IMG/VR virus record: IMGVR_UViG_2734482786_000001
Coordinates: 1-25,360 of that record
Strand: one strand, 5' to 3'
DNA: 25,360 bases
Source of the DNA: a virus
Taxonomy: Duplodnaviria > Heunggongvirae > Uroviricota > Caudoviricetes
Below are positions 9,506 through 25,360 of this stretch, one piece after another. How positions within the stretch are numbered: position 1 is the stretch's first letter; every line of letters begins with the position of its first letter. The notes below the pieces were generated by a model. It had not been told where the DNA came from. It made no database searches and was given only the letters and a program-made list of their open reading frames with translations. The position numbers and the translations under genes were made by a program.

Positions 9506-11272
9506 ATGAACACCACACTGACACCCGCAGATCTCGATCCCCGTCGGCAGGCCATGCTGCTGTACTTTCAGGGATACCGCGTCGCCCGCATTGCTGAAAT
9601 GCTGGGAGAGAAAGTTGCAACCGTTCACAGCTGGAAAAAACGCGACAAGTGGGGTGACTATGGGCCGCTGGATCAGATGCAGCTCACCACCGCCGCACGC
9701 TACTGCCAGCTCATTATGAAGGAGCACAAAGAAGGGAAAGATTTCAAAGAGATTGACCTGCTGGCGCGCCAGTCGGAACGCCACGCGCGGATCGGCAAGT
9801 TTAACAATGGCGGCAACGAAGCCGACTTAAACCCTAACGTCGCCAACCGCAACAAAGGCCCGCGCCGTCAGCCGGAAAAGAACGTTTTCACCGATGAACA
9901 GATTGAGAAGCTGGAAGAAATCTTCCATTCCTCCATGTTCAACTACCAGCGCCACTGGTGGGAAGCCGGAAAAACCAACCGCATCCGCAACCTGCTGAAG
10001 TCACGCCAGATCGGCGCGACCTTCTATTTTGCCCGTGAAGCCCTGATTGACGCCCTGCTAACCGGGCGTAACCAGATTTTCCTTTCCGCCAGCAAGACTC
10101 AGGCCCACGTCTTTAAGCAGTACATCATCGACTTCGCCAAAGAAGTGGAGGTGGAGCTGAAAGGCGATCCGATGGTGCTTCCTAACGGGGCCACGCTTTA
10201 CTTCCTCGGCACCAATGCCCGCACTGCCCAGAGTTATCACGGCAACCTGTATCTGGATGAATATTTCTGGATACCGAAATTCCAGGAGCTGCGCAAAGTG
10301 GCTTCCGGTATGGCTATTCACAAGAAATGGCGACAAACCTATTTTTCCACGCCATCCAGCCTGACTCATAGTGCTTATCCGTTCTGGTCCGGTGCGCTGT
10401 TCAACCGTGGGCGCAACAAAGCCGACAAGGTGGACATCGACCTGTCCCACAGCAATCTGGCCCCCGGCCTGCTGTGCGCAGACGGGCAATACCGCCAGAT
10501 AGTCACCGTGGAAGATGCGGTGCGCGGCGGCTGTAACCTGTTCGACCTTGACCAGTTGCGCATGGAGTACAGCCCGGACGAATACCAGAACCTGCTGATG
10601 TGCGAGTTTGTGGACGATCTCGCGTCCGTGTTCCCGCTCAGCGAGCTGCAGGCGTGCATGGTGGACAGCTGGGAAGTCTGGACCGACTTTCATGCACTGG
10701 CTCTGCGCCCGTTTGGCTGGCGCGAAGTGTGGATCGGTTATGACCCGGCAAAAGGTACGCAAAACGGCGACAGCGCCGGATGCGTGGTGGTGGCACCGCC
10801 AGCCGTGCCTGGTGGTAAGTTCCGCATTCTTGAGCGTCACCAGTGGCGCGGGATGGACTTCCGCGCCCAGGCTGACGCCATCAAAAAACTGACCGAGCAG
10901 TACAACGTGACCTACATCGGCATCGACTCGACCGGCGTCGGCCACGGGGTTTACGAGAACGTGAAAGCGTTTTTTCCAGCCGTCCGGGAGTTTGTCTACA
11001 ACCCCAACGTTAAAAACGCTCTGGTACTCAAGGCCTACGACATTATCAGCCACCGCCGTCTGGAGTTTGACGCCGGGCACACCGACATTGCGCAGTCATT
11101 CATGGCAATCCGTCGCGCCACCACCGCCAGTGGCAACCGCCCAACCTATGAAGCCAGCCGCAGCGAAGAAGCCAGCCACGCCGATCTGGCCTGGGCAACA
11201 ATGCACGCACTGTTTAACGAACCGCTGCAGGGCGAGTCCGCCAATACCAGCAATATTGTGGAGATTTTTTGA
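9506..11272 (+). CDS. P: Terminase large (ATPase) subunit gpP
   Basis: 588 aa; ATG start; size and position divergent from O as in P2; plus-strand gene pair P-Q. Confidence 0.9.
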   Translation: MNTTLTPADLDPRRQAMLLYFQGYRVARIAEMLGEKVATVHSWKKRDKWGDYGPLDQMQLTTAARYCQLIMKEHKEGKDFKEIDLLARQSERHARIGKFNNGGNEADLNPNVANRNKGPRRQPEKNVFTDEQIEKLEEIFHSSMFNYQRHWWEAGKTNRIRNLLKSRQIGATFYFAREALIDALLTGRNQIFLSASKTQAHVFKQYIIDFAKEVEVELKGDPMVLPNGATLYFLGTNARTAQSYHGNLYLDEYFWIPKFQELRKVASGMAIHKKWRQTYFSTPSSLTHSAYPFWSGALFNRGRNKADKVDIDLSHSNLAPGLLCADGQYRQIVTVEDAVRGGCNLFDLDQLRMEYSPDEYQNLLMCEFVDDLASVFPLSELQACMVDSWEVWTDFHALALRPFGWREVWIGYDPAKGTQNGDSAGCVVVAPPAVPGGKFRILERHQWRGMDFRAQADAIKKLTEQYNVTYIGIDSTGVGHGVYENVKAFFPAVREFVYNPNVKNALVLKAYDIISHRRLEFDAGHTDIAQSFMAIRRATTASGNRPTYEASRSEEASHADLAWATMHALFNEPLQGESANTSNIVEIF

Positions 11273-12303
11273 TGGGAAAGAGTAAGAAGAACCGCGCTGC
11301 GTCGACGAAACAGATCCAGCATAAAAGCCAGACTTCAGCCGAAGCATTCAGCTTCGGTGATCCCGTTCCTGTTCTGGACCGCCGCGAATTGCTGGACTAT
11401 GTGGAATGCGTACAGATGGATCGCTGGTATGAGCCGCCCGTCAGCTTTGACGGACTGGCACGAACCTTCCGCGCCGCCGTGCATCACAGCTCACCGATTG
11501 CGGTGAAATGCAACATTCTGACCAGCACCTACATCCCTCACCCGCTGCTCAGCCAGCAGGCTTTTTCACGTTTTGTGCAGGACTATCTGGTATTCGGTAA
11601 CGCCTACCTGGAGAAACGCACGAATCGATTCGGTGAAGTTATCGCCCTTGAGCCTGCGCTGGCAAAATACACCCGACGCGGATTAGATCTGGATACCTAC
11701 TGGTTTGTGCAATACGGCATGACTACGCAGCCGTATCAGTTCACGAAAGGCAGCATCTTTCATCTGATGGAACCGGATATCAACCAGGAGATCTACGGCC
11801 TGCCCGGTTATCTTTCTGCCATTCCGTCAGCCCTGCTCAACGAGTCCGCCACGCTGTTCCGCCGCAAGTATTACATTAACGGCAGTCATGCAGGCTTCAT
11901 CATGTACATGACCGATGCAGCGCAAAACCAGGAGGATGTGAACAACCTCCGCAATGCGATGAAAAGCGCCAAAGGTCCTGGTAACTTCCGTAACCTGTTT
12001 ATGTACTCGCCTAACGGTAAAAAGGACGGGCTTCAGATTATCCCGTTGTCAGAAGTGGCGGCGAAGGATGAGTTCCTGAATATCAAGAACGTGAGCCGGG
12101 ACGACATGATGGCGGCGCATCGTGTGCCGCCACAAATGATGGGGATAATGCCTAATAATGTCGGGGGGTTTGGGGATGTGGAGAAGGCCAGTCTCGTTTT
12201 TGTTCGTAATGAGTTAATACCATTGCAGAAACGACTAAAGGAACTAAATCACTGGCTTGGTGAGAAAGTAGTTAACTTTAAAACTTATGCCTTAAACTGT
12301 TAA
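11272..12303 (+). CDS. Q: Portal protein gpQ
   Basis: Track ORF starts at TTG 11269; the ATG at 11272 overlaps the P stop. About 343 aa. The last ~35 codons are AT-rich (see findings). Confidence 0.9.
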   Translation: MGKSKKNRAASTKQIQHKSQTSAEAFSFGDPVPVLDRRELLDYVECVQMDRWYEPPVSFDGLARTFRAAVHHSSPIAVKCNILTSTYIPHPLLSQQAFSRFVQDYLVFGNAYLEKRTNRFGEVIALEPALAKYTRRGLDLDTYWFVQYGMTTQPYQFTKGSIFHLMEPDINQEIYGLPGYLSAIPSALLNESATLFRRKYYINGSHAGFIMYMTDAAQNQEDVNNLRNAMKSAKGPGNFRNLFMYSPNGKKDGLQIIPLSEVAAKDEFLNIKNVSRDDMMAAHRVPPQMMGIMPNNVGGFGDVEKASLVFVRNELIPLQKRLKELNHWLGEKVVNFKTYALNC

Positions 12304-12320
12304 AAATTATTATGAAACAA

Positions 12321-12339
12321 GGCGCTTAACATAAGCGCC
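12321..12339. terminator. Bidirectional stem-loop between convergent Q and the DUF262 gene
   Basis: GGCGCTTA-aca-TAAGCGCC hairpin; on the minus strand it is followed by TTGTTTCATAATAATTTTT. Confidence 0.45.
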
Positions 12340-12348
12340 CAATATATA

Positions 12349-14130
12349 TTAGATTATATTATAGGCCTTCGCTGACATAGATAATGTTCTAATCTGAACT
12401 TTTTGGGCATTCCATTCCTCATCGTTAGATGAATACTCATCAATAAACTCATTAACCACCTTAAGGTTTGACTTCTTATACTCGTTTATTTTTTTACTTA
12501 AGCTATCATTTTTACATGATTCATTCAAAGTAAAGCAAAGAGGAAGAAGATTCCCCATTAATCCAACAACCTCTGAGTCAAAACTACTTTGTGCACCAAT
12601 ATGCTCGAGTGAAACTAAGTCTAATTTTAACTCATTAGTTCCTCGCAATTTCTTTTCAAAACGTTCAAAAATATACATTATGAGCTTACGCTGGGAGGCT
12701 TTTTTATTTGTATAAAATAAATTTTTAACAAATGCCTCATTGAATACTTTTTCATTTGGACTTTTCGCAGAAAAGTATGCTATTGCTTCACTAATGGTTG
12801 ATTCGATACTACGTTTATTAGTAGCTTTATCAAGGCTTACTGCTAATACTGAATACTTGGCGTCTATGCCAGAGGGTCTTAATCGGCAAATAGCATTAAA
12901 TCTAAAGTGGAATCTCTCTAAACACATTAGACACTCTATTAAACTTTTTTGCGAAAGACTTCTAGATTTATCTCTTCTTTTTCTTAATAATGACAAAATG
13001 AATGGGCGAGGGATTGAAACATTGAATATTTCAAATGCTTTAAGTGAATTGTAAATATCTCGCTGATCCTGTTGAGGCCAATCATCAATATCTGGAGAAA
13101 TTATCTTACAATATAAATCAACATCTTTATGCAACTCATCCAAAAATGAAATTGCAGTTAATCCATAAACACCATCATTTATCTCTCTTTTAAAGGCACG
13201 GTATAGTTGATCTTCACCTATATAATTAAACTTAGAAAGCCACCAACACCTGACATAATCAACCATTGTAGCGTTACTATCTCTAGCTTCGATGCAATTA
13301 GTAATATAATCCCATTTCTCTTTGGCTTTATCTATTGGATATGTTTCAATACAACTCTGGAAAACTTTATTTTTAATCAGATCAAGGGAGCTTAAGTTTA
13401 TTCCCCTTGCATTCAAAACCTCGAAAATATCATACGCGTCATCTTCCTTGCCTACTGATATCCTTACTAATTTAAGATAATTAGTAACCATATTGTAAAC
13501 GGCATTCAAGCAAAAAAGGTAATCTTCCTTTTTATACTTTACTGCACCGTCACGCAACAAAGAAGAACATAATGCTTTCTTTCCTAGCTTTCTGCTTAAA
13601 TACAACCCAGCATATTGAATCTTTTTATCTTCATCGCAAGTCACATCAGCTTTATGCTCAACTCTATCTTGGAATTTTAGTTTAAAAAAAGCCCTGTCAC
13701 TATTTTTAGAAAGCTTCTCAACTACTGAGTCGCCATTAGAACTGACAGAATTTCTATTGAACGTCTGATTTGCGGTTACGATATATGTTTTAAAAATATC
13801 ATCAGCAAATTCGGCCTTCCCATTTTTTCTTAAAAACCTAGAAATTAAAGAAAGTAGAATTGTAATAACACTGAAACGCTGCTGACCATCAACAATCTCC
13901 AAAACATTATCACTGTCAGCACCAGACAATACAATTGTACCAATAAAGTACTCATTGAATTCAAAGTCATCCCCTTTGGGATTTAATTTTATATTTCTTA
14001 TTATGTCTTGCCACAATTCATCAAGTTGTAACTTTTCCCAACTAAATTCTCGTTGATTCCGTGGAATCACATAACGCTGTTTAACAGAAAGTATATTTTT
14101 AATATTTAAAGGAGTTGCATCAAAATTCAT
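12349..14130 (-). CDS. DUF262/DUF1524 (GmrSD-like) nuclease family protein; candidate anti-phage defence gene
   Basis: N-terminal DUF262 signatures (VIPRNQREFSW, EIVDGQQRF, FEVLNARGINLSSLDLIKN) and C-terminal His-Me/HNH-like DUF1524 signature (SLEHIGAQ…GNLLPL…N). Start set at first ATG 14130 (RBS-like AGGGAA); the track ORF starts at TTG 14181. Strongly AT-rich relative to flanking phage genes. Confidence 0.75.
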   Translation of the reverse strand: MNFDATPLNIKNILSVKQRYVIPRNQREFSWEKLQLDELWQDIIRNIKLNPKGDDFEFNEYFIGTIVLSGADSDNVLEIVDGQQRFSVITILLSLISRFLRKNGKAEFADDIFKTYIVTANQTFNRNSVSSNGDSVVEKLSKNSDRAFFKLKFQDRVEHKADVTCDEDKKIQYAGLYLSRKLGKKALCSSLLRDGAVKYKKEDYLFCLNAVYNMVTNYLKLVRISVGKEDDAYDIFEVLNARGINLSSLDLIKNKVFQSCIETYPIDKAKEKWDYITNCIEARDSNATMVDYVRCWWLSKFNYIGEDQLYRAFKREINDGVYGLTAISFLDELHKDVDLYCKIISPDIDDWPQQDQRDIYNSLKAFEIFNVSIPRPFILSLLRKRRDKSRSLSQKSLIECLMCLERFHFRFNAICRLRPSGIDAKYSVLAVSLDKATNKRSIESTISEAIAYFSAKSPNEKVFNEAFVKNLFYTNKKASQRKLIMYIFERFEKKLRGTNELKLDLVSLEHIGAQSSFDSEVVGLMGNLLPLCFTLNESCKNDSLSKKINEYKKSNLKVVNEFIDEYSSNDEEWNAQKVQIRTLSMSAKAYNII

Positions 14131-14224
14131 ATCATCATTCCCTAGACATGACCATGGGTTGATCGTTAATTTACTTAACAAGATAGATTAAAACAACTAT
14201 TACTAATTCATATCTCAGCGCGCG

Positions 14225-15033: not shown

Positions 15034-17448
15034 TTAATACAGGTTTCGCCACTTATCATCTTCCTGCAAACGCTGGTTCCGATAGAAGATACGCAGGCCT
15101 GCTCCTGACGGAATACTGCCGCCGCGAAGGAGTAAATCGACCTCTTTCTCGCTGCCATCAAATCCTCTGGACTTCAGTTCGTAGACGAGCTGCTGTCGCT
15201 GATGGTCTGTAATTCGCTGTTTGTAGTCTTTACGCCGTTTCGGTTTCACCAGGCGTAACCTTGCAGCCAGTTCCCGGCGCTCTTTTTTGCTCATACTGTG
15301 CAGGTAATCGTGCAACTCCTTGTCATCCATGCGGGTAATGTCCGTCCTGGTATCCCCATCAGCTGATTTGTCTTTCCCTTGTTGGTTCAAATTTTCAGCA
15401 AGGGGACAGTTATTGCCACGAGTCCAAGGGGCGCAAGCGCCCTGGTCGGCTGCCGCCTCCTGAACGTCAACGGCTTTACGAACCATTTTCCACTTCACTG
15501 CATGAGTGCAGATCTTGCCCTCTGCAATGGGTGACCAGATGCCATAAATACGAATGCCGTGATCGCCATAGGCGGTCGGCTCTTCGTTGATTTCATAAGC
15601 GGTTCTGATGAGGTGATATTTACGGGGAACCAGTACGCCGCCCTGCTTCATGATGTAGGTGGCAAAACAACCAGCATCAGCAGCAGCCAGAATGGCATCA
15701 AGACGCGGGTTATCCAGTACCGGCGCACCTGCATTTTTGTCCCCCTGTTGCCTTGCCGCCTGACCAGCCAACAATCGCAGTTCACGGTAAGCCTGACGCC
15801 CCGGAATGCCAAAGAAGCGGAATTGCTGAACACGATGCAAAGACGCCCAGGCATTCACGTATTCAGCGTTATCACGCAGAGATTTACCCGTTTCCTTGCT
15901 GATCTCGCCAGCCAGACCACGACCGTCAATGTTCTTACTGATATATTTCGCGATGTAGCTTGTCGGCGTTCCTTTGCGCGGGTTAATCAACTCAGACTTA
16001 AAGCGCGGCCCAGTGTTATTGCCCAGCTCCTCGCGGTCTTCACGGATGGCAAACTTACGCAGTAATGCAGTGATGGCACGGCGGTCTTTTTTGCGCATGA
16101 AACACAACAGGTGCCAGTGAACTGTGCCATCATGATGCGGCTCAGCCACCCGCACGCCATACCAGCGCAACCCGGCTTTGTGCATCGCCTTACGAAATGC
16201 AGCAAACATGCCGACCAGATAATCGCTGCTTTGTCTTACCGTCGCGTTTGTCCAGGTCGGGTTTGGTCTGCCGTTATTTAGCGTGGAATGGAAACGCGAC
16301 GGACAGGTGATAGTGTAGAAAACGGCGCAGTCACCGCGCATTTCCGCGATAAGCTCCAGACCTTTAACACAGGCCATCATCTCATTGCGGCGATGCGCAG
16401 GGTTGCTGCTGCTGGCGTTTACCACATCCTCCATGTCCAGCGTGTCGCCGTCTTCGTTCACCAGTTCATGAGAACGGAAAAACTCCAGCGACTTACGGCG
16501 CTGCTCACGTTTATGCATCACGGCTTCATAGCTGACATAAGGAGATGCTTTTTTGCTGACCAGGCAAACAGCGCGCAACTGCTCTTCCCGCCATTCGCAA
16601 CGCATCTTCCATAATTTCCGATACCACCAGTCGGCGCACAACATACGCGCCAGCGAACCCGGAATGAGTTCATAGGGCACGGGTTTACGGCGGTTTCTTT
16701 TCCGACGGAGTTGCTCAAACGCAGGTGGGATGACATCCAGACGCAGGGTCTCCGCTGCCACCTTTTCCCATGTCTTGCGGATTTCTTCTGGCTTAACGTC
16801 ATCGGTGGCATACAAATCACCACAAGCTGCATCAAGGCACATACTCATATGCGCAGCTACCAGGGTGGACAGGCGTTTCACCTGATCCTGACTCATTTCA
16901 GGCAGGATCAGCAGGCCGTCCAGCCCTTCATGGCTTGCCATAAAGCGAAAAGATGCAGATAGCTGACTGTCGCGTACATGCTCCAGTCGTTCCAGACATG
17001 GCTTAATCGTCTCACGTAAATAGCGGGAATAAGCCTTTGGCCTGCCCAGGCTGCTGAAGTATTCAATACGTTGCATCAGCGGCTTGCTGATATGGGAAGG
17101 CTGGGCGTTGACGTCCGCCAGAATGACCATGTCTGAATTAAAACGCTGCTGCTCATGCGCCAGCTTTGCCCGGCTAATGAGCTTATCCTGCTCCATTTCG
17201 CGCTGGACAGGATCACGTGATTCATTAAAGAAATAACGCTCCCAGACCTGATCACTCAGTGCCTCGCGGCGCAACTGTTCCTGCTCGTTATCGGCAGCGT
17301 ACAGAGTGATCAGGTTTGAAAGCGTAGAAACCGGCGCAACTTCCGCCGGGTCCAGATAAGGGTTAATGGCCTTTTTCGGGCTGTTCCATGAGAATGCTGC
17401 GGCAGCCTCGTTAAAGCCGCAGCAGTTGTTCATATCGGCATGAGTCAT
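15034..17448 (-). CDS. A: Replication initiation protein gpA (rolling-circle endonuclease)
   Basis: 804 aa; HUH-like motif region (…[10 protein letters not shown]…) and active-site Tyr region (…[10 protein letters not shown]…); ATG start overlapping the dam stop. Confidence 0.85.
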
Positions 17449-19415: not shown

Positions 19416-19582
19416 TTTGACTTTCTCTGTTTCCTCGTGGTCAATTCAGACAGCAATTCGTCTTGTGAATGACATGGATGCCAGCGTTTTCCATCCTCAC
19501 CCATGATCCAGCCGTGACCGTAGTGCATTGCCGGGCTTTGCTTTACCAGCAGCGATGCAAATGATGGTTCTTTCGTCAGCAT
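19286..19582 (-). CDS. Hypothetical ORF immediately downstream of cII, overlapping the 74-aa ORF
   Basis: ATG at 19582 with GAGGTG RBS, 8 nt after the cII stop; the 3' two thirds overlap 19191..19415 out of frame, so extent is uncertain. Confidence 0.3.
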   Translation of the reverse strand: MLTKEPSFASLLVKQSPAMHYGHGWIMGEDGKRWHPCHSQDELLSELTTRKQRKSKCMQRKVKWFISFVTEGRVIQYLKMICSVVIRRCRAMAVTFSR

Positions 19583-19589
19583 AAGCACC

Positions 19590-20099
19590 TCACAGCAACC
19601 CGAATGAAGCACCGAGACCAGTTACGGTATCAACTGCACTTGCCATCGCAGGATTAGCCTGTAAACGGGCCTGCAATGAAACAGCAGCCAGCGCCATCAG
19701 TCGTGTAACAGAGTTAATGCTGCTGATCGCATCACGACGGCCTGCACTGGTTTTTACATCGCCAGAAACCGCACCAGCCGCGACACGCCCTATCTCTGCA
19801 GTTGCACTCATGACGTAATGCGGTAGTTTCTCTTTTGCCACCTCATTAATCGGAACACATGGCAGACAATGAATCTGTGCCAGAAAACCATCTACCAGCG
19901 TTGAATCTTCAGTCAGATCGGTAAGTAGCCAGATATCTCGTGCAGTGAGCTGATGCGGTTGTTCCGGGTTCAGCTTGTTACGCAGCGTCTGGACGTTCAT
20001 TCCCGCGAGTTCTGCTAGCTTCGCCATATTGTGACGTAGTGCAAAAGCTCTACAGGCTTCATCAAAATGCGGATGTTTGGAAATCTTGTAATCAAACAT
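19590..20099 (-). CDS. cII: CII-like lysogeny establishment activator (phage 186 CII family)
   Basis: 169 aa, same length as 186 CII; HTH segment NMAKLAELAGMNVQTLRNKLNPEQPH matches 186 CII as recalled; AGGGAG RBS. Confidence 0.8.
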   Translation of the reverse strand: MFDYKISKHPHFDEACRAFALRHNMAKLAELAGMNVQTLRNKLNPEQPHQLTARDIWLLTDLTEDSTLVDGFLAQIHCLPCVPINEVAKEKLPHYVMSATAEIGRVAAGAVSGDVKTSAGRRDAISSINSVTRLMALAAVSLQARLQANPAMASAVDTVTGLGASFGLL

Positions 20100-20131: not shown

Positions 20132-20374
20132 TTACTTACCAACAATGACGCGGAAGTTGGAATGACCGAGGGATTCACGGACCTGATCAGTTTTGTACAT
20201 CAGATAACGCAGGCTTACGCGGCCTTTGTTTTTTTCTTTCTTGACCATGTACTTAGCGAGTTGACCATGGTGAATTTTTTGGTAAACAGACCCGCGGGAA
20301 ATCCCTTCCCATTCAGCGAATTCAGCAGGCGTAGCCATCTCTTTTGGTACACGAATTGAAATATCTGTGCTCAT
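20132..20374 (-). CDS. apl: Apl/Cox-like HTH excisionase-regulator
   Basis: 80-aa HTH protein, first gene of the lytic operon, oriented away from the CI repressor gene. Confidence 0.65.
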   Translation of the reverse strand: MSTDISIRVPKEMATPAEFAEWEGISRGSVYQKIHHGQLAKYMVKKEKNKGRVSLRYLMYKTDQVRESLGHSNFRVIVGK

Positions 20375-20454: not shown

Positions 20455-20483
20455 AAAATACGATCTCGTTATTGGATTGTCAA
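20455..20483 (-). promoter_or_regulatory. Candidate lytic promoter (pR-like): TTGACA-17 bp-TATTTT on the minus strand
   Basis: Consensus -35 (rc of 20478..20483), 17-bp spacer, -10 TATTTT (rc of 20455..20460); directs transcription toward apl/cII. Confidence 0.45.
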
Positions 20484-20497
20484 ATGGAGAGTTCATC

Positions 20498-21127
20498 TTG
20501 AAGATTAGTACAGGTGCAAATACGGGAGGGAGAGAGACCATCAAAAGGCTGATGACAGCCTATGGTTTCAACACTCAGATAGCGTTGGTTGAACACCTCG
20601 AAGCATCAAAAAGCACCATGGCAAACAGGATGTTACGTGATAGCTTCCCTGCTGACTGGGTTATTCAATGTGCCCTTGAAACAGGTATTTCTCTTCTTTG
20701 GCTGACAACGGGCCAAGGGGAAATGTATCCTCAAACAGAAGAAAAAAATAAGTTCAAAAACGAGAGTTCACCTACAGTTCGCCCCCTTTCAAAGATAGTT
20801 ATCCCATCAGTAAGGCAGGCAACCATTGAGAACGGAACGCTCGAAGAGATGGGGGATGTTTTCCTTGATCAGACTTTGATACCCGGAAAAGCCGAATATT
20901 GTTTGTACGTCAAAGCTAACGACGGCAATTACATTGTTGATACATCAACAAAACAGCTTAGTAACGGAATTTGGCTCATAGACATCGACGGTATGAAAAA
21001 CATCGTCAAAATTGCGCGCATACCTGGAAACAAAATAGTAGTTAACCAAGATGACACTTCATTTGAATGTTCTGTAGATGATGTGGAAGTCGTAGGACGT
21101 GCAGTCAAAGTAATCAAGAACCTCTAA
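20498..21127 (+). CDS. cI: CI-type immunity repressor (186 CI-like)
   Basis: HTH region …AYGF…CALETGISLLWLTTGQGE… resembles 186 CI. The track ORF starts at TTG 20477 without RBS; TTG 20498 is preceded by GGAGAG at 6-nt spacing. Start uncertain. Confidence 0.75.
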   Translation: MKISTGANTGGRETIKRLMTAYGFNTQIALVEHLEASKSTMANRMLRDSFPADWVIQCALETGISLLWLTTGQGEMYPQTEEKNKFKNESSPTVRPLSKIVIPSVRQATIENGTLEEMGDVFLDQTLIPGKAEYCLYVKANDGNYIVDTSTKQLSNGIWLIDIDGMKNIVKIARIPGNKIVVNQDDTSFECSVDDVEVVGRAVKVIKNL

Positions 21128-21130
21128 CTT

Positions 21131-22150
21131 ATGACCATCAGAAAACAGCCGAACGGAAAATGGTTGTGTGAGTGCTATCCCAATGGACGCAATGGTAAGC
21201 GCGTGCGTAAGCAATTTGCTACCAAAGGCGAAGCTATTGCATTTGAAAGCTTCACAATGGAAGAAGTGAACAAAAAACCATGGCTGGGGGAAAAGGAAGA
21301 TCGGCGACATTTATCAGAATTAATTGAGCTGTGGTATTCCCTGTATGGTCAAACACTCACAGACCCCAAGCGCCTCATGGCGAAACTTAGTATTATCTGT
21401 AATGGTCTAGGCGATCCCATCGCTTCAGAACTGACAGCCGGTGACTTTACGAAATACCGCGAAGCACGGTTAAAAGGTGAAGTACGAAATGAAGATGGCA
21501 CGCTTATGTCGCCCGTTAAGCCCCGCACGGTAAACCTTGAACAGCGCAATCTATCATCTGTTTTTGGTACACTGAAAAAGCTGGGCCACTGGTCAGCCCC
21601 CAACCCGCTTGCCGGGCTGCCAACATTTAAAATTGCTGAGAGTGAATTGGCGTTCCTGACCCCGGAAGAAATTAAACGTCTGCTGGATGCCTGTGCTGAT
21701 TCTCAAAGCTCTAGTCTGCTGACGGTTGCAAAAATATGTCTGGCCACCGGCGCGAGATGGAGTGAAGCCGAAAACCTGCAGGGCCATCAATTATCAAAAT
21801 ACCGGATCACCTACACCAAAACTAAAGGCAAGAAAAACCGAACCGTACCGATATCTCAGGAGCTATATGAAGAACTCCCCAAAAACAGAGGGAAACTATT
21901 CACGCCCTGCAGAAAAGCTTTTGAGCGCGCAGTAAAACGAGCCGGTATAGACCTGCCTGAAGGCCAGTGCACACACGTGTTGCGCCATACATTCGCCAGT
22001 CACTTCATGATGAATGGCGGAAACATATTGGTACTACGCGATATTCTTGGTCACTCTGATATAAAAATGACGATGGTTTATGCTCATTTTTCGCCAGATC
22101 ATTTAGAAGATGCTGTAACAAAAAATCCACTGGCTATGTTGGGATACTGA
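21131..22150 (+). CDS. int: Tyrosine integrase (P2/186 family)
   Basis: 339 aa; C-terminal catalytic region HVLRHTFASH…LGHSDIKMTMVYAH (R…H-x-x-R…Y). Confidence 0.9.
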   Translation: MTIRKQPNGKWLCECYPNGRNGKRVRKQFATKGEAIAFESFTMEEVNKKPWLGEKEDRRHLSELIELWYSLYGQTLTDPKRLMAKLSIICNGLGDPIASELTAGDFTKYREARLKGEVRNEDGTLMSPVKPRTVNLEQRNLSSVFGTLKKLGHWSAPNPLAGLPTFKIAESELAFLTPEEIKRLLDACADSQSSSLLTVAKICLATGARWSEAENLQGHQLSKYRITYTKTKGKKNRTVPISQELYEELPKNRGKLFTPCRKAFERAVKRAGIDLPEGQCTHVLRHTFASHFMMNGGNILVLRDILGHSDIKMTMVYAHFSPDHLEDAVTKNPLAMLGY

Positions 22151-22152
22151 TA

Positions 22153-23184
22153 ATGGAAAAAAGCATTAGCACATTTATGTACCTATCCGTTTTATTAGGT
22201 TGTATATTCTTATTTATAAAATATCGACTTTATGTTCTCGATCATAGAAGCCTGTTCCAACAACCCTTGTTCTGGGCTGCAATAGGCCTACCTTTATTCA
22301 CCAGCCTTTACTTTGGTTCTTTTGTCTGGATAGATAAAATACACTCTTTTAGTCTTACAAGTCACGGTTATGAGAGATTTTTAGATATCTCGAAATTACC
22401 ATTACTCATCCTTGCATCTGCAGTACCTTTAGTTTCAATAGTAAACAACCTACACAGAACCAAACAAACAGAAAAACAGATCTCAGAGGCAGAAAGGAAA
22501 AACAGGGTAGATTTATATTACAACCACATGAAATTTCATCTTGATTTATATAAAAAAATCGAAGGAAAAAGAATAGGCAGCTACTACCCGGTTCAGGAAG
22601 CTCAAGCTGAAGCAATCTACCAACATTTTATAAAACATCCACAAGAACTATATAGAAAAGCATACCCACAATCTACGCCTGATGATTCTCAACAATTAGA
22701 TATTAATGAGCAATTTGTTATTGATTTACACAAATGTTGGGTAGAAATCAACGCAAGACTCAAGCAATTATCCGAGAGTGAAAATCAAATACATCCTACA
22801 GAGGAACTTTGCACAACAAAGATGAGAATATTTGTAGGAGTTATGATTATTTATGAAAAAACTTGTAAACTGTTGTGTTTAGGTGGATTTCATTATAAAA
22901 AGTCATTTGTAATAAATGATAGTTATAATAAATACCAAGTTTATTCACCATTTTATGATTTTGGCACTCTGTACGAATCACTGCAATCCTTAGAAGAGAT
23001 AACCTACGCCTTCTTGGATACTTGCAGAAATGAAGTGGTAAACTTGTACTTCCCTATAGAAGATAAAATTTTGATATATGGTGAAGGGATTCTAGAGAAT
23101 TGGTTCAAGTATTCTCAGTTCTTGATCACTATAGCTTATCAACCCGCCAAGATGTCTCGCTTACCCCAGCTGAGACGCGATTGA
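22153..23184 (+). CDS. Membrane-anchored protein of unknown function (cargo between int and att)
   Basis: 343 aa; ATG 2 nt after the int stop; three predicted N-terminal transmembrane helices, then a ~230-aa soluble domain with no motif recognised by eye; markedly AT-rich. Confidence 0.6.
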   Translation: MEKSISTFMYLSVLLGCIFLFIKYRLYVLDHRSLFQQPLFWAAIGLPLFTSLYFGSFVWIDKIHSFSLTSHGYERFLDISKLPLLILASAVPLVSIVNNLHRTKQTEKQISEAERKNRVDLYYNHMKFHLDLYKKIEGKRIGSYYPVQEAQAEAIYQHFIKHPQELYRKAYPQSTPDDSQQLDINEQFVIDLHKCWVEINARLKQLSESENQIHPTEELCTTKMRIFVGVMIIYEKTCKLLCLGGFHYKKSFVINDSYNKYQVYSPFYDFGTLYESLQSLEEITYAFLDTCRNEVVNLYFPIEDKILIYGEGILENWFKYSQFLITIAYQPAKMSRLPQLRRD

Positions 23185-23300
23185 TGATGGCGACATTTTG
23201 GCGGCAGAGCTTTAAAAACAGATAAAACTGTCAAACACCACATAACACTAAAGTATTGTTTTTAAACATAAATCATTATTTTTTCTGTAGTAAAAATGGT

Positions 23301-23345
23301 ATGTAGGAATTTCGGACGCGGGTTCAACTCCCGCCAGCTCCACCA
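23301..23345 (+). repeat. Prophage attachment-site core: 45-nt duplicate of the ssrA (tmRNA) 3' end
   Basis: ATGTAGGAATTTCGGACGCGGGTTCAACTCCCGCCAGCTCCACCA matches the 3' terminus of E. coli tmRNA as recalled; upstream flank is AT-rich phage DNA, not tmRNA body. Confidence 0.75.
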
Positions 23346-23472
23346 ATCATGATTGGACGGTGTAAGGACAACACCAACAAAAACAGGAAGTTAGAAGTCT
23401 CAGCAAAACACCGACCAGACGGTGAGGAGACATAAAAGGATACGCAAAGGAGCCGCGGCTCCTGGTAACATG

Positions 23473-23496
23473 AAAGCCCACAGATGTGGGCTTTTT
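23473..23496. terminator. Stem-loop terminator between the att core and the convergent autotransporter gene
   Basis: AAAGCCCACA-ga-TGTGGGCTTT followed by TT on the plus strand; 10 bp beyond the autotransporter stop. Confidence 0.4.
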
Positions 23497-23505
23497 CGTT
23501 GATGG

Positions 23506-25360
23506 TCAGAACGACCAGTTCACACCAGCTACCGCGTTCCACGGGGATTCCACACCGGCACTATGGCTATACCCCACCCCAAGATGCCCGCTTAACGTAC
23601 TGCTGAATGAGGCTTTAATACCTGCCTGGTATATTCCACGTCTGCCCGACAAATAATTGACGAAATTACCGTCACTATTCACTTTCACCCGGTTATCATC
23701 GACAAATTCTTTGCGCACAGCCGCCTTCAGCCACGGCTCAACTTCCATACCGTTCCCCAGACGCATGTTGTAACTCAGCGTTGCGCCCAGTTCACGATAT
23801 ATACTGCGGGTATCGACTGATTTCGATTTCATGCCATTGGATAAATGATATTCGGGGTTATCAGCGGTGAACCCCGTTAACGATGCATACGGCGTCAGGT
23901 TCCAGTTACCATCGGTAAATCGCATCCCGGTTTCAATGTGACCGCCCAGCCCGTTGCTGTGGTAACTGCCATTGGCGGCTCCACCGCTGCTCATTTTACC
24001 TGCTACGTTACTTTTAAAACGGTTCAGCTTCACGACACCGTCCAGATAGAAACCACTTTCATGTTCCCAACTGGCATAGCCGCCCAGAGAATAACTGCCC
24101 ACACTGCCATGTCCTCCGCGATCAAAACCGATATGTGAATGGGAATAGCCCATAAAAGCGCCTAGCGTGGTAATTCCTTCAGGAATATCATTACGGCTGT
24201 CGATCCCCACTGTCATTCCGGTCAGCGTCTGCTCAAACCCGGCACCCGCATCGGTGGTGACATTATTACGGGTGTTATACGTCGCCCCCCAGACATTATT
24301 GTTGTGTGGACTCGCTTTCATTATGTTCAACCGCTCGCGAATACTGTTTAGCTCAGCATCAAATACCAACGGTAATGTTGCTGCCATATTGAGTACGGCT
24401 GCCGTAGAAGGCGTAATGCGTTTCTCCGGAACGGGTGTCGGCGTTGGATCGGGAGTAGGGTCTGGTTTTGGATTTGGGTCTGGCTTTGGATCGGGTTTTG
24501 GGTCTGGCTTTGGATTTGGGATGGGGTCCGGGTTGGGTTTGACATCATTGGTCAGGTTCCAGTTGCTGTTGCCGTCACTTTTCAGGACATACTCATAGGT
24601 CCCAAGATCAACGAAACCGCCGGTATTGCCCAGCGTAAACGAAGCATCCCCTCCCCCTGTTTTCACCAGCGTCATCGCGTCGTCAGACTGTGGGCTGACG
24701 CCGGTATCCTGAACAAAGATTTTAAAATTACCAGTGGCGTTGTTGTTGACGACCAGTTGATCGCCCCGGGAGCCTGCAACGTTGGTATGCAGGTAGAAAT
24801 TACCGCTACCGGAAAGTTCATTGGTTGTCAGCGTATTGTAGATACCGTTAGTTGTGGCAGGCGCTGCTGTTTGTGCTGACAAATAAACATCACCGTCGTT
24901 GAGTAGCAAACTGTTTACTCTATATTCGCAGTTGCTGGTACCTGCACAGGAATTATTGCTGTTAAGCCAGACACTGCCCCGGCTGGCAGCCGTCAGGTCG
25001 GCAAGCGTGGTATCGACGCCATTTCCCAGAGTCAATGTCGCGCTATCGGTAATCCGGACCGCCCCTTCGAGTTTAACTGGCGTAACATTATCCCGTGGCG
25101 TCATTAACGACAGGCTTCCTGTCGCGCCACTGACCGATGCATCCGCCAGCGTACCTGCGTAGACGATTGCCGTACCGCCAGCGACCTGGAGATCTTCTGC
25201 CCGGGCCAGAGCCTGAAACTCATCTTTTGACCGCCCAAGGGTATATTGCCCGCCAGAGTTAACCTTTGTGGCGGAGTCCTGACCCAGGTTTTGCATTGCC
25301 CCACCCTTGCCAACCGTGGAGTCGCGAGCTTCGGTACCTGCTAAGGAAGGTGCGAACAAG
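23506..25360 (-). CDS. Autotransporter (type Va) outer-membrane protein, C-terminal part; gene continues beyond window end (host gene, possibly YpjA-like)
   Basis: C-terminal beta-barrel-type domain ending …VNWSF, Pro-rich PDPKPDP linker, Ser/Thr/Gly/Asn-rich passenger; no start codon context in window. Confidence 0.8.
   Translation of the reverse strand, partial: LFAPSLAGTEARDSTVGKGGAMQNLGQDSATKVNSGGQYTLGRSKDEFQALARAEDLQVAGGTAIVYAGTLADASVSGATGSLSLMTPRDNVTPVKLEGAVRITDSATLTLGNGVDTTLADLTAASRGSVWLNSNNSCAGTSNCEYRVNSLLLNDGDVYLSAQTAAPATTNGIYNTLTTNELSGSGNFYLHTNVAGSRGDQLVVNNNATGNFKIFVQDTGVSPQSDDAMTLVKTGGGDASFTLGNTGGFVDLGTYEYVLKSDGNSNWNLTNDVKPNPDPIPNPKPDPKPDPKPDPNPKPDPTPDPTPTPVPEKRITPSTAAVLNMAATLPLVFDAELNSIRERLNIMKASPHNNNVWGATYNTRNNVTTDAGAGFEQTLTGMTVGIDSRNDIPEGITTLGAFMGYSHSHIGFDRGGHGSVGSYSLGGYASWEHESGFYLDGVVKLNRFKSNVAGKMSSGGAANGSYHSNGLGGHIETGMRFTDGNWNLTPYASLTGFTADNPEYHLSNGMKSKSVDTRSIYRELGATLSYNMRLGNGMEVEPWLKAAVRKEFVDDNRVKVNSDGNFVNYLSGRRGIYQAGIKASFSSTLSGHLGVGYSHSAGVESPWNAVAGVNWSF

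Follow-up and report, generated by a model that had tools for sequence, protein, structure and literature searches.

A copy of the ssrA 3' end that almost certainly forms the integrase-proximal junction of a Fels-2/186-type P2-like prophage in Escherichia coli

INTRODUCTION

Why would a stretch of phage DNA carry the last 45 nucleotides (nt) of ssrA, the gene for transfer-messenger RNA (tmRNA), beside a bacterial gene? The stretch in question, which we call the window, is the whole of the 25,360 nt analyzed (IMG/VR virus record IMGVR_UViG_2734482786_000001, positions 1 to 25,360). Positions 1 to 23300 belong to a P2-like (Peduoviridae) prophage and make up about two-thirds of its ~33 kb. This assignment draws on open reading frames (ORFs), Pfam and PHROG matches, and the annotation of near-identical genomes. 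The 45-nt segment follows directly, at 23301-23345. An original prediction, made by a model that saw only the sequence and its ORFs, took this segment for a prophage boundary at a duplicated ssrA 3' end. We conclude that the 45-mer is almost certainly the core of the junction at the integrase-proximal end of a P2-like prophage of the Fels-2/186 type, inserted in the 3' end of E. coli ssrA. The junction is the right one in the window's orientation and would be attL on the usual P2 map, where int is drawn at the left.

RESULTS

The 45-mer (ATGTAGGAATTTCGGACGCGGGTTCAACTCCCGCCAGCTCCACCA, plus strand) comprises the T-arm, the 3' acceptor strand, and the CCA of tmRNA and equals nt 319 to 363 of ssrA. 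All 45 of its positions are identical to the 3' end of the target gene, the 363-nt ssrA, in E. coli strain S1-CAM-01-A. When the A that follows it is included, the match to the K-12 ssrA end is 46 of 46, and we define the attachment (att) core as the last 45 nt of ssrA plus this A (23301-23346, plus strand). The Rfam tmRNA model aligned 23301-23345 to model positions ~330 to 374 with a posterior probability of ~1. The identity with the tmRNA 3' terminus, which the original prediction had stated, thus holds in the alignments to the Rfam model, to S1-CAM-01-A, and to K-12. The 45-mer occurs once in the window, with no second copy of the core inside it, and 100 shuffles gave 0 matches with up to 3 mismatches allowed.

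Is the segment part of a gene of its own? ARAGORN found zero tRNA or tmRNA genes over the whole window, so the 45-mer is a fragment. The RefSeq annotation made with PGAP reads the locus differently and places a second, 177-nt tmRNA gene at window positions 23169-23345. An "ssrA" is called there in sister genomes, and Rfam RF00023 scores 52.0 bits over 23169-23345 against a gathering score of 47. That such a gene exists is nevertheless extremely improbable: beyond the silence of ARAGORN, 82 unrelated nucleotides stand for 267 model positions in the Rfam alignment, three of the seven acceptor-stem pairs are mispaired, and the alleged 5' part falls within the final portion of a 343-amino-acid (aa) ORF. 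Four loci that have the identical 45-mer and the phage arm next to it, together with other cargo genes, score below the threshold; the locus with the same cargo gene alone scores, at 52.0 bits. The 45-mer alone folds no better than its shuffles (z = -0.22). We rejected the 5' extension of the Rfam hit (23169-23300) as real, since it vanishes in loci with other cargo genes. The complete tRNA-like domain, tag frame, and pseudoknots of a functional tmRNA gene are not present here. With neither a 5' partner nor a tag-coding region, the fragment at 23301-23345 is therefore a scar and an excision substrate, not a gene. RF00023 passes its threshold through a chance match in the last 16 nt of the cargo ORF, and the PGAP call overlaps the cargo coding sequence.

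To the right of the core lies an intergenic flank (23347-23505) that is identical to K-12 beyond its CP4-57 remnant and belongs to the host DNA downstream of the ancestral ssrA. It holds a host terminator at about 23472-23497 (hairpin plus U-run, -17.5 kcal/mol, z = -3.84). The ORF at 23506-25359 (minus strand), which converges on the fragment and leaves the window, encodes the C-terminal 617 codons of an AIDA-type autotransporter adhesin. It has Pertactin and Autotransporter beta-domains and is annotated as ypjA/EhaD in matching genomes; a convergent host autotransporter gene had been predicted here. K-12 aligns with the window from 23331 rightward at 99.95% identity, over the final 15 nt of the core, one of them deleted in K-12, and the rest of the window. 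In K-12, the corresponding stretch follows the CP4-57 cryptic prophage, is annotated with the pseudo-ssrA remnant psaA, and stands just before ypjA. The match identifies everything right of 23345 as the ancestral DNA that follows ssrA.

To represent the unoccupied bacterial attachment site (attB), we joined 120 nt of the ssrA end to 120 nt of the window flank. At least 80% of this construct was covered in 2,528 of 5,426 complete E. coli genomes, many of which matched it at 100% identity over 240 nt. The boundary in these empty sites falls exactly at the repeat, and the phage/host boundary is therefore fixed at 23345/23346.

The K-12 remnant ("psaA") occupies the same host position as the fragment, and a P4-like satellite is found in tandem arrays at ssrA. 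Both observations would fit an older, unrelated ssrA island of the CP4-57 or P4 type that owns the fragment, with the P2-like prophage merely adjacent. We regard this as highly improbable. The K-12 remnant matches no more than the final 15 nt of the core, lacks T357 within them, and is unrelated upstream, whereas the full 45-mer and the 114-nt phage arm are contiguous in the phage attachment site (attP) of free phages of the same family. The arm also abuts the host flank, with no DNA of another element between them. A remnant of the CP4-57 type, a distal copy of ~14 nt preceded by CP4-57 DNA, was likewise rejected: the K-12 alignment starts only at 23331.

The reading as a P2-like prophage junction places an intact ssrA at the other end of the element, outside the window. 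We judged the far end from the three closest complete genomes examined (strains 63-2, S1-CAM-01-A, and PSS-08-2). The closest complete E. coli genome, that of 63-2, covers 100% of the window at 98.6% identity. In 63-2 and S1-CAM-01-A, smpB is followed by the intact ssrA, a 160-aa gene, ogr, and D at one end, and int, the 343-aa gene, the fragment, and ypjA come in this order at the other. PSS-08-2 has the same left end, with ssrA beside smpB at the ogr end. The 45-mer plus one A forms a direct repeat of exactly 46 bp in 63-2 and S1-CAM-01-A, with copies spaced 34,502 bp and 33,248 bp apart, respectively. In both, the far copy completes the 363-nt ssrA next to smpB. The predicted position of the intact gene was thus borne out in all three of these relatives, and the second core copy for which the original prediction had called was measured in two of them.

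In PSS-08-2, the locus is a tandem array (positions 2260-47119 of the segment examined from NZ_AP027679.1): intact ssrA comes first, then the same P2-like prophage and the 45-mer, and after these a P4-like satellite and ypjA. The satellite carries an integrase gene, psu, a delta-like gene, and a primase-helicase gene; a helper-type phage and a satellite thus use a single attachment gene. At the far end of the PSS-08-2 satellite, a search for a third copy of the final 15 nt (≤1 mismatch) found none.

On the phage side, the original prediction had described AT-rich DNA left of the 45-mer, and the GC content is indeed low: 0.336 over 22001-23000 and 0.366 over 22501-23500, compared with 0.55 to 0.60 in the late genes. 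The ORF layout leaves a noncoding stretch at 23185-23300. Within it, the integrase-proximal att arm, 114 nt of phage DNA (23187-23300, plus strand), is conserved in Fels-2-group phages regardless of the cargo that precedes it. We aligned this arm in six family members (the window, two E. coli prophages, Cartapus, RE-2010, and Fels-2). Conservation sets in abruptly at 23187, directly 3' of the variable cargo gene, and the arm opens with a nearly invariant ATGGCGRCA-N-TGGCGGCAG doublet. The doublet contains two tandem putative arm-type sites for the integrase (Int) (23188-23206, plus strand), TGGCGACA at 23188-23195 and TGGCGGCA at 23199-23206, spaced 11 bp apart. Nearly all of their positions are invariant in the alignment, with one R position, and they match the reverse complement of the 186-type Int arm consensus tgccGCCActt (PMC3448106). 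The ogr-side arm of a sister genome, like that of Cartapus, has a further doublet that points the same way. With the other arm taken from these two, the predicted layout has at least two direct arm repeats of the 186 type on each side of the core. Such 8-mers are rare, with only 5 in the whole window on both strands. We infer from this pattern that Int binds the putative repeats. The only candidate site for integration host factor in the arm (23249-23261, minus strand) has 1 mismatch and is poorly conserved in relatives, and we make no claim for it.

The arm and core can also be followed into phages that are free of the host chromosome. In the deposited phage genomes of Cartapus and RE-2010, the identical 45-mer sits between int plus cargo and ogr, as the attP core. 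The same core is there flanked by the sequences found at both prophage ends. The 114-nt arm of the window, the core, and the far-side flank of the sister genome together rebuild the Cartapus attP, with identities to the Cartapus arms of 95/115 (83%) on the int side and 125/130 (96%) on the far side. The Fels-2 record has an annotated 47-bp attP (24 + 23 bp) that begins at the same base as the core, and its first 24 nt equal the first 24 nt of the window core. Directly after the CCA, the far-side arm of the phage forms a 12-bp hairpin followed by a U-run (-19.8 kcal/mol, z = -4.27).

Of the 5,426 complete E. coli genomes, 212 contain the arm-plus-core junction. In many genomes, the match to the window begins only at ~23181-23188, because they carry related prophages with other cargo. 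A true phage end at ~23185 was rejected for the same reason: 23187-23300 is a shared att arm, and the partially matching genomes hold prophages with different cargo.

The placement of the junction at the int end, as predicted, agrees with a full-length, intact tyrosine integrase gene (339 aa; 21131-22150, plus strand; Int_N and Phage_integrase domains) that is transcribed toward the 45-mer. It lies 1.15 kb upstream of the core, with one cargo gene and the 114-nt arm in between. The protein is 91 to 94% identical to Int of Cartapus, Fels-2, and two E. coli prophages, and residues R209, H282, R285, H308, and Y317 are invariant across the Ints compared. The remaining signs of a 186-type, P2-like element are a lysis-lysogeny switch with CI, Apl/Cox, CII, and Fil (fil being truncated in sister genomes) and P2-type late-gene synteny with the GpA replication endonuclease, in which portal and terminase genes run opposite to those for scaffold, capsid, small terminase, and head completion.

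The junction could also be a fossil, the 45-mer being only the historical scar of a defective prophage that is unable to excise. The truncated fil annotated in sister prophages and a split tail fiber gene in S1-CAM-01-A fit this idea. On the other hand, the ORFs for Int, Apl/Cox, CI, CII, gene A, terminase, portal, capsid, and lysis are full-length in the window, the arm repeats are intact, and both core copies are perfect in relatives. The tail fiber gene is whole in 63-2, the closest genome. Moreover, the site is empty in about half of the strains, and 212 have related prophages that differ in cargo; such a pattern points to continuing traffic. We consider a fossil unlikely. Several points nonetheless count against our own reading of a prophage junction. 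The truncated fil in sister genomes reflects some decay; fil is, however, dispensable for integration and excision. The second core copy was seen in close relatives (98 to 99% identical), and the far end of this prophage lies beyond the window. Given the tandem arrays at ssrA, an extra element might sit between the intact ssrA and that far end. Finally, Int binding and the ability of this prophage to excise are both things that we infer.

How would the arrangement arise? The attP consists of the int-side arm with its two putative Int arm-type repeats, a core of 45 to 46 bp, and the ogr-side arm, in which a terminator hairpin comes first and two further arm repeats follow. Int, bound to the arm and core sites, would recombine the attP core with its identical counterpart at the 3' end of ssrA. 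The body of ssrA would then run into a core copy, behind which come phage DNA and the phage terminator. The tmRNA should remain intact because the phage brings an identical 3' end and a terminator. As attP carries its own copy and terminator, the window copy is best read as the displaced original 3' end of the host gene, these 45 nt being left between the int-side arm and the host flank toward ypjA. The crossover would lie somewhere within the core, whose two copies are identical. In the reverse reaction, Int with Apl/Cox would act between the two copies to release a circular phage and restore wild-type ssrA. Such a restoration is expected because the window copy is perfect (it keeps T357).

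The slot between int and att holds a cargo gene at 22153-23184 (plus strand) for a 343-aa predicted membrane-anchored protein (PHROG 17460, function unknown). No family match for it was found in Pfam, PADLOC, or NCBIfam. Its structure model is confident (pLDDT of 88.7), with no informative fold match. The protein has three N-terminal hydrophobic helices and an invariant N-x-H-R-T-x-Q-T-E-K-Q-I...K-N-x-x-D block, and its C terminus has diverged in relatives. Prophages of E. coli and Enterobacter have homologues in this slot. The content of the slot varies; strain VG888-46E9 has an anti-phage dCTP deaminase there. A 2026 survey describes the int-att interval as a minor P2 defense hotspot (PMC13586616). 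We tentatively suggest that the 343-aa protein is an undescribed anti-phage or superinfection exclusion effector in this hotspot, although this is doubtful. The gene shares its strand with cI-int, so its expression in the lysogen is presumed. A more speculative idea concerns the transcript: as no terminator was found from the cargo stop codon up to the host terminator (~23472-23497), a lysogenic transcript may traverse the ssrA fragment and may thereby gain a tRNA-like 3' element.

The rest of the prophage in the window comprises late genes, terminase and portal genes, a cargo island, gene A for replication, and the lysis-lysogeny switch of the 186 type. The left part (minus strand) encodes tail, lysis, and head functions, and the terminase ATPase and portal genes are at 9506-12303 (plus strand). 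Gene A is found at 15034-17448 (minus strand) and CII at 19590-20099 (minus strand). The Apl/Cox-type excisionase and switch protein (20132-20374, minus strand; PHROG 6912, excisionase, and PHROG 575, Cox-like excisionase/repressor) is divergent from cI. The gene for the 186-type CI repressor (20477-21127, plus strand; Phage_CI_repr and Phage_CI_C domains) is upstream of int; the cI ORF as listed begins at TTG, and sister genomes annotate 630 nt. By coordinates, ~19472-19582 (minus strand) corresponds to the place at which PGAP annotates, in sister genomes, a truncated fil (phage filamentation) pseudogene with a 74-aa hypothetical gene after it. The truncation hints at some decay or replacement within the early region.

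The cargo island lies between the gene A side and the portal gene. It spans about 12234-14218, has a GC content of 32 to 38%, and encodes a GmrSD-type enzyme at 12349-14181 (minus strand). This 610-aa type IV restriction enzyme (DUF262/DUF1524) was assigned to HEC-06 by PADLOC (E = 3e-73). The position of the island is the known P2 old/tin (A-to-Q) defense hotspot. In S1-CAM-01-A, whose prophage is otherwise near-identical, the A-to-Q slot holds a different gene, of 470 aa.

DISCUSSION

The question posed by the 45-mer has a familiar answer. Every point of the original prediction held up, and the arrangement is well known and ordinary; integration of Fels-2 and SopEPhi into ssrA was already established, and 212 of the 5,426 E. 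coli genomes hold the arm-plus-core junction. No new question about integration arises, and the value of the analysis is mostly one of housekeeping. One prophage boundary is set to the base (23345/23346), the element and the host locus are identified, and the location of the other end is predicted. Two points go beyond the original prediction, namely, that a cargo gene parts int from att and that RefSeq misannotates the fragment. The latter exposes a recurring artifact, as a spurious second "ssrA" of 177 nt appears in genomes with this prophage and this cargo gene. Loss of this prophage should leave the tmRNA wild type, unlike the loss of CP4-57 in K-12, and the contrast at T357 matters when ssrA-linked phenotypes are compared between strains.

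The closest known systems are SopEPhi and Fels-2 of Salmonella (Felsduovirus, Peduoviridae), which integrate in ssrA (Pelludat et al. 2003, as cited in PMC3448106); ssrA is thus a known integration site, as had been claimed for this locus. Fels-2 resembles the window element in the first base of its attP core, its Int (92% identical), its conserved int-side arm with invariant arm repeats, its 186-type CI/Apl/CII/Fil switch, and the placement of int at the end distal to the intact ssrA. It differs in having no int-att cargo: its int ends 117 nt before the core, whereas the window has the 343-aa gene. The host of Fels-2 and SopEPhi is Salmonella, whereas the window is from E. coli with ypjA downstream, and the A-to-Q cargo also differs.

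The Escherichia phage Cartapus and the Salmonella phage RE-2010 share the identical 45-mer core and the layout of int, cargo, arm, core, terminator, 160-aa gene, and ogr. Their int-att cargo is a 401-aa protein, not the 343-aa one; the Cartapus record names it a RES/NAD+-binding protein, and the RE-2010 record a hypothetical protein. As deposited phage genomes, they also differ in that their attP is uninterrupted.

CP4-57 of K-12, which has a P4-type integrase (IntA), uses the same target gene and has the same host flank toward ypjA. Unlike the int of the window element, which is at the distal end, IntA adjoins the intact ssrA. The distal remnant of CP4-57 is about 14 to 15 nt without T357 (24973-24986 of the K-12 segment compared), in contrast to the perfect 45-mer of the window. 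Excision of CP4-57 with the loss of T357 is reported to inactivate tmRNA and trans-translation (PMC10107115). Coliphage 186, for its part, is similar in its regulatory module, Int family, and type of arm repeat, and its core, too, is long and restores the target gene (PMC3448106). Its targets are tRNA-Ile genes, however, and its core specificity therefore differs from that of the ssrA-directed prophage in the window.
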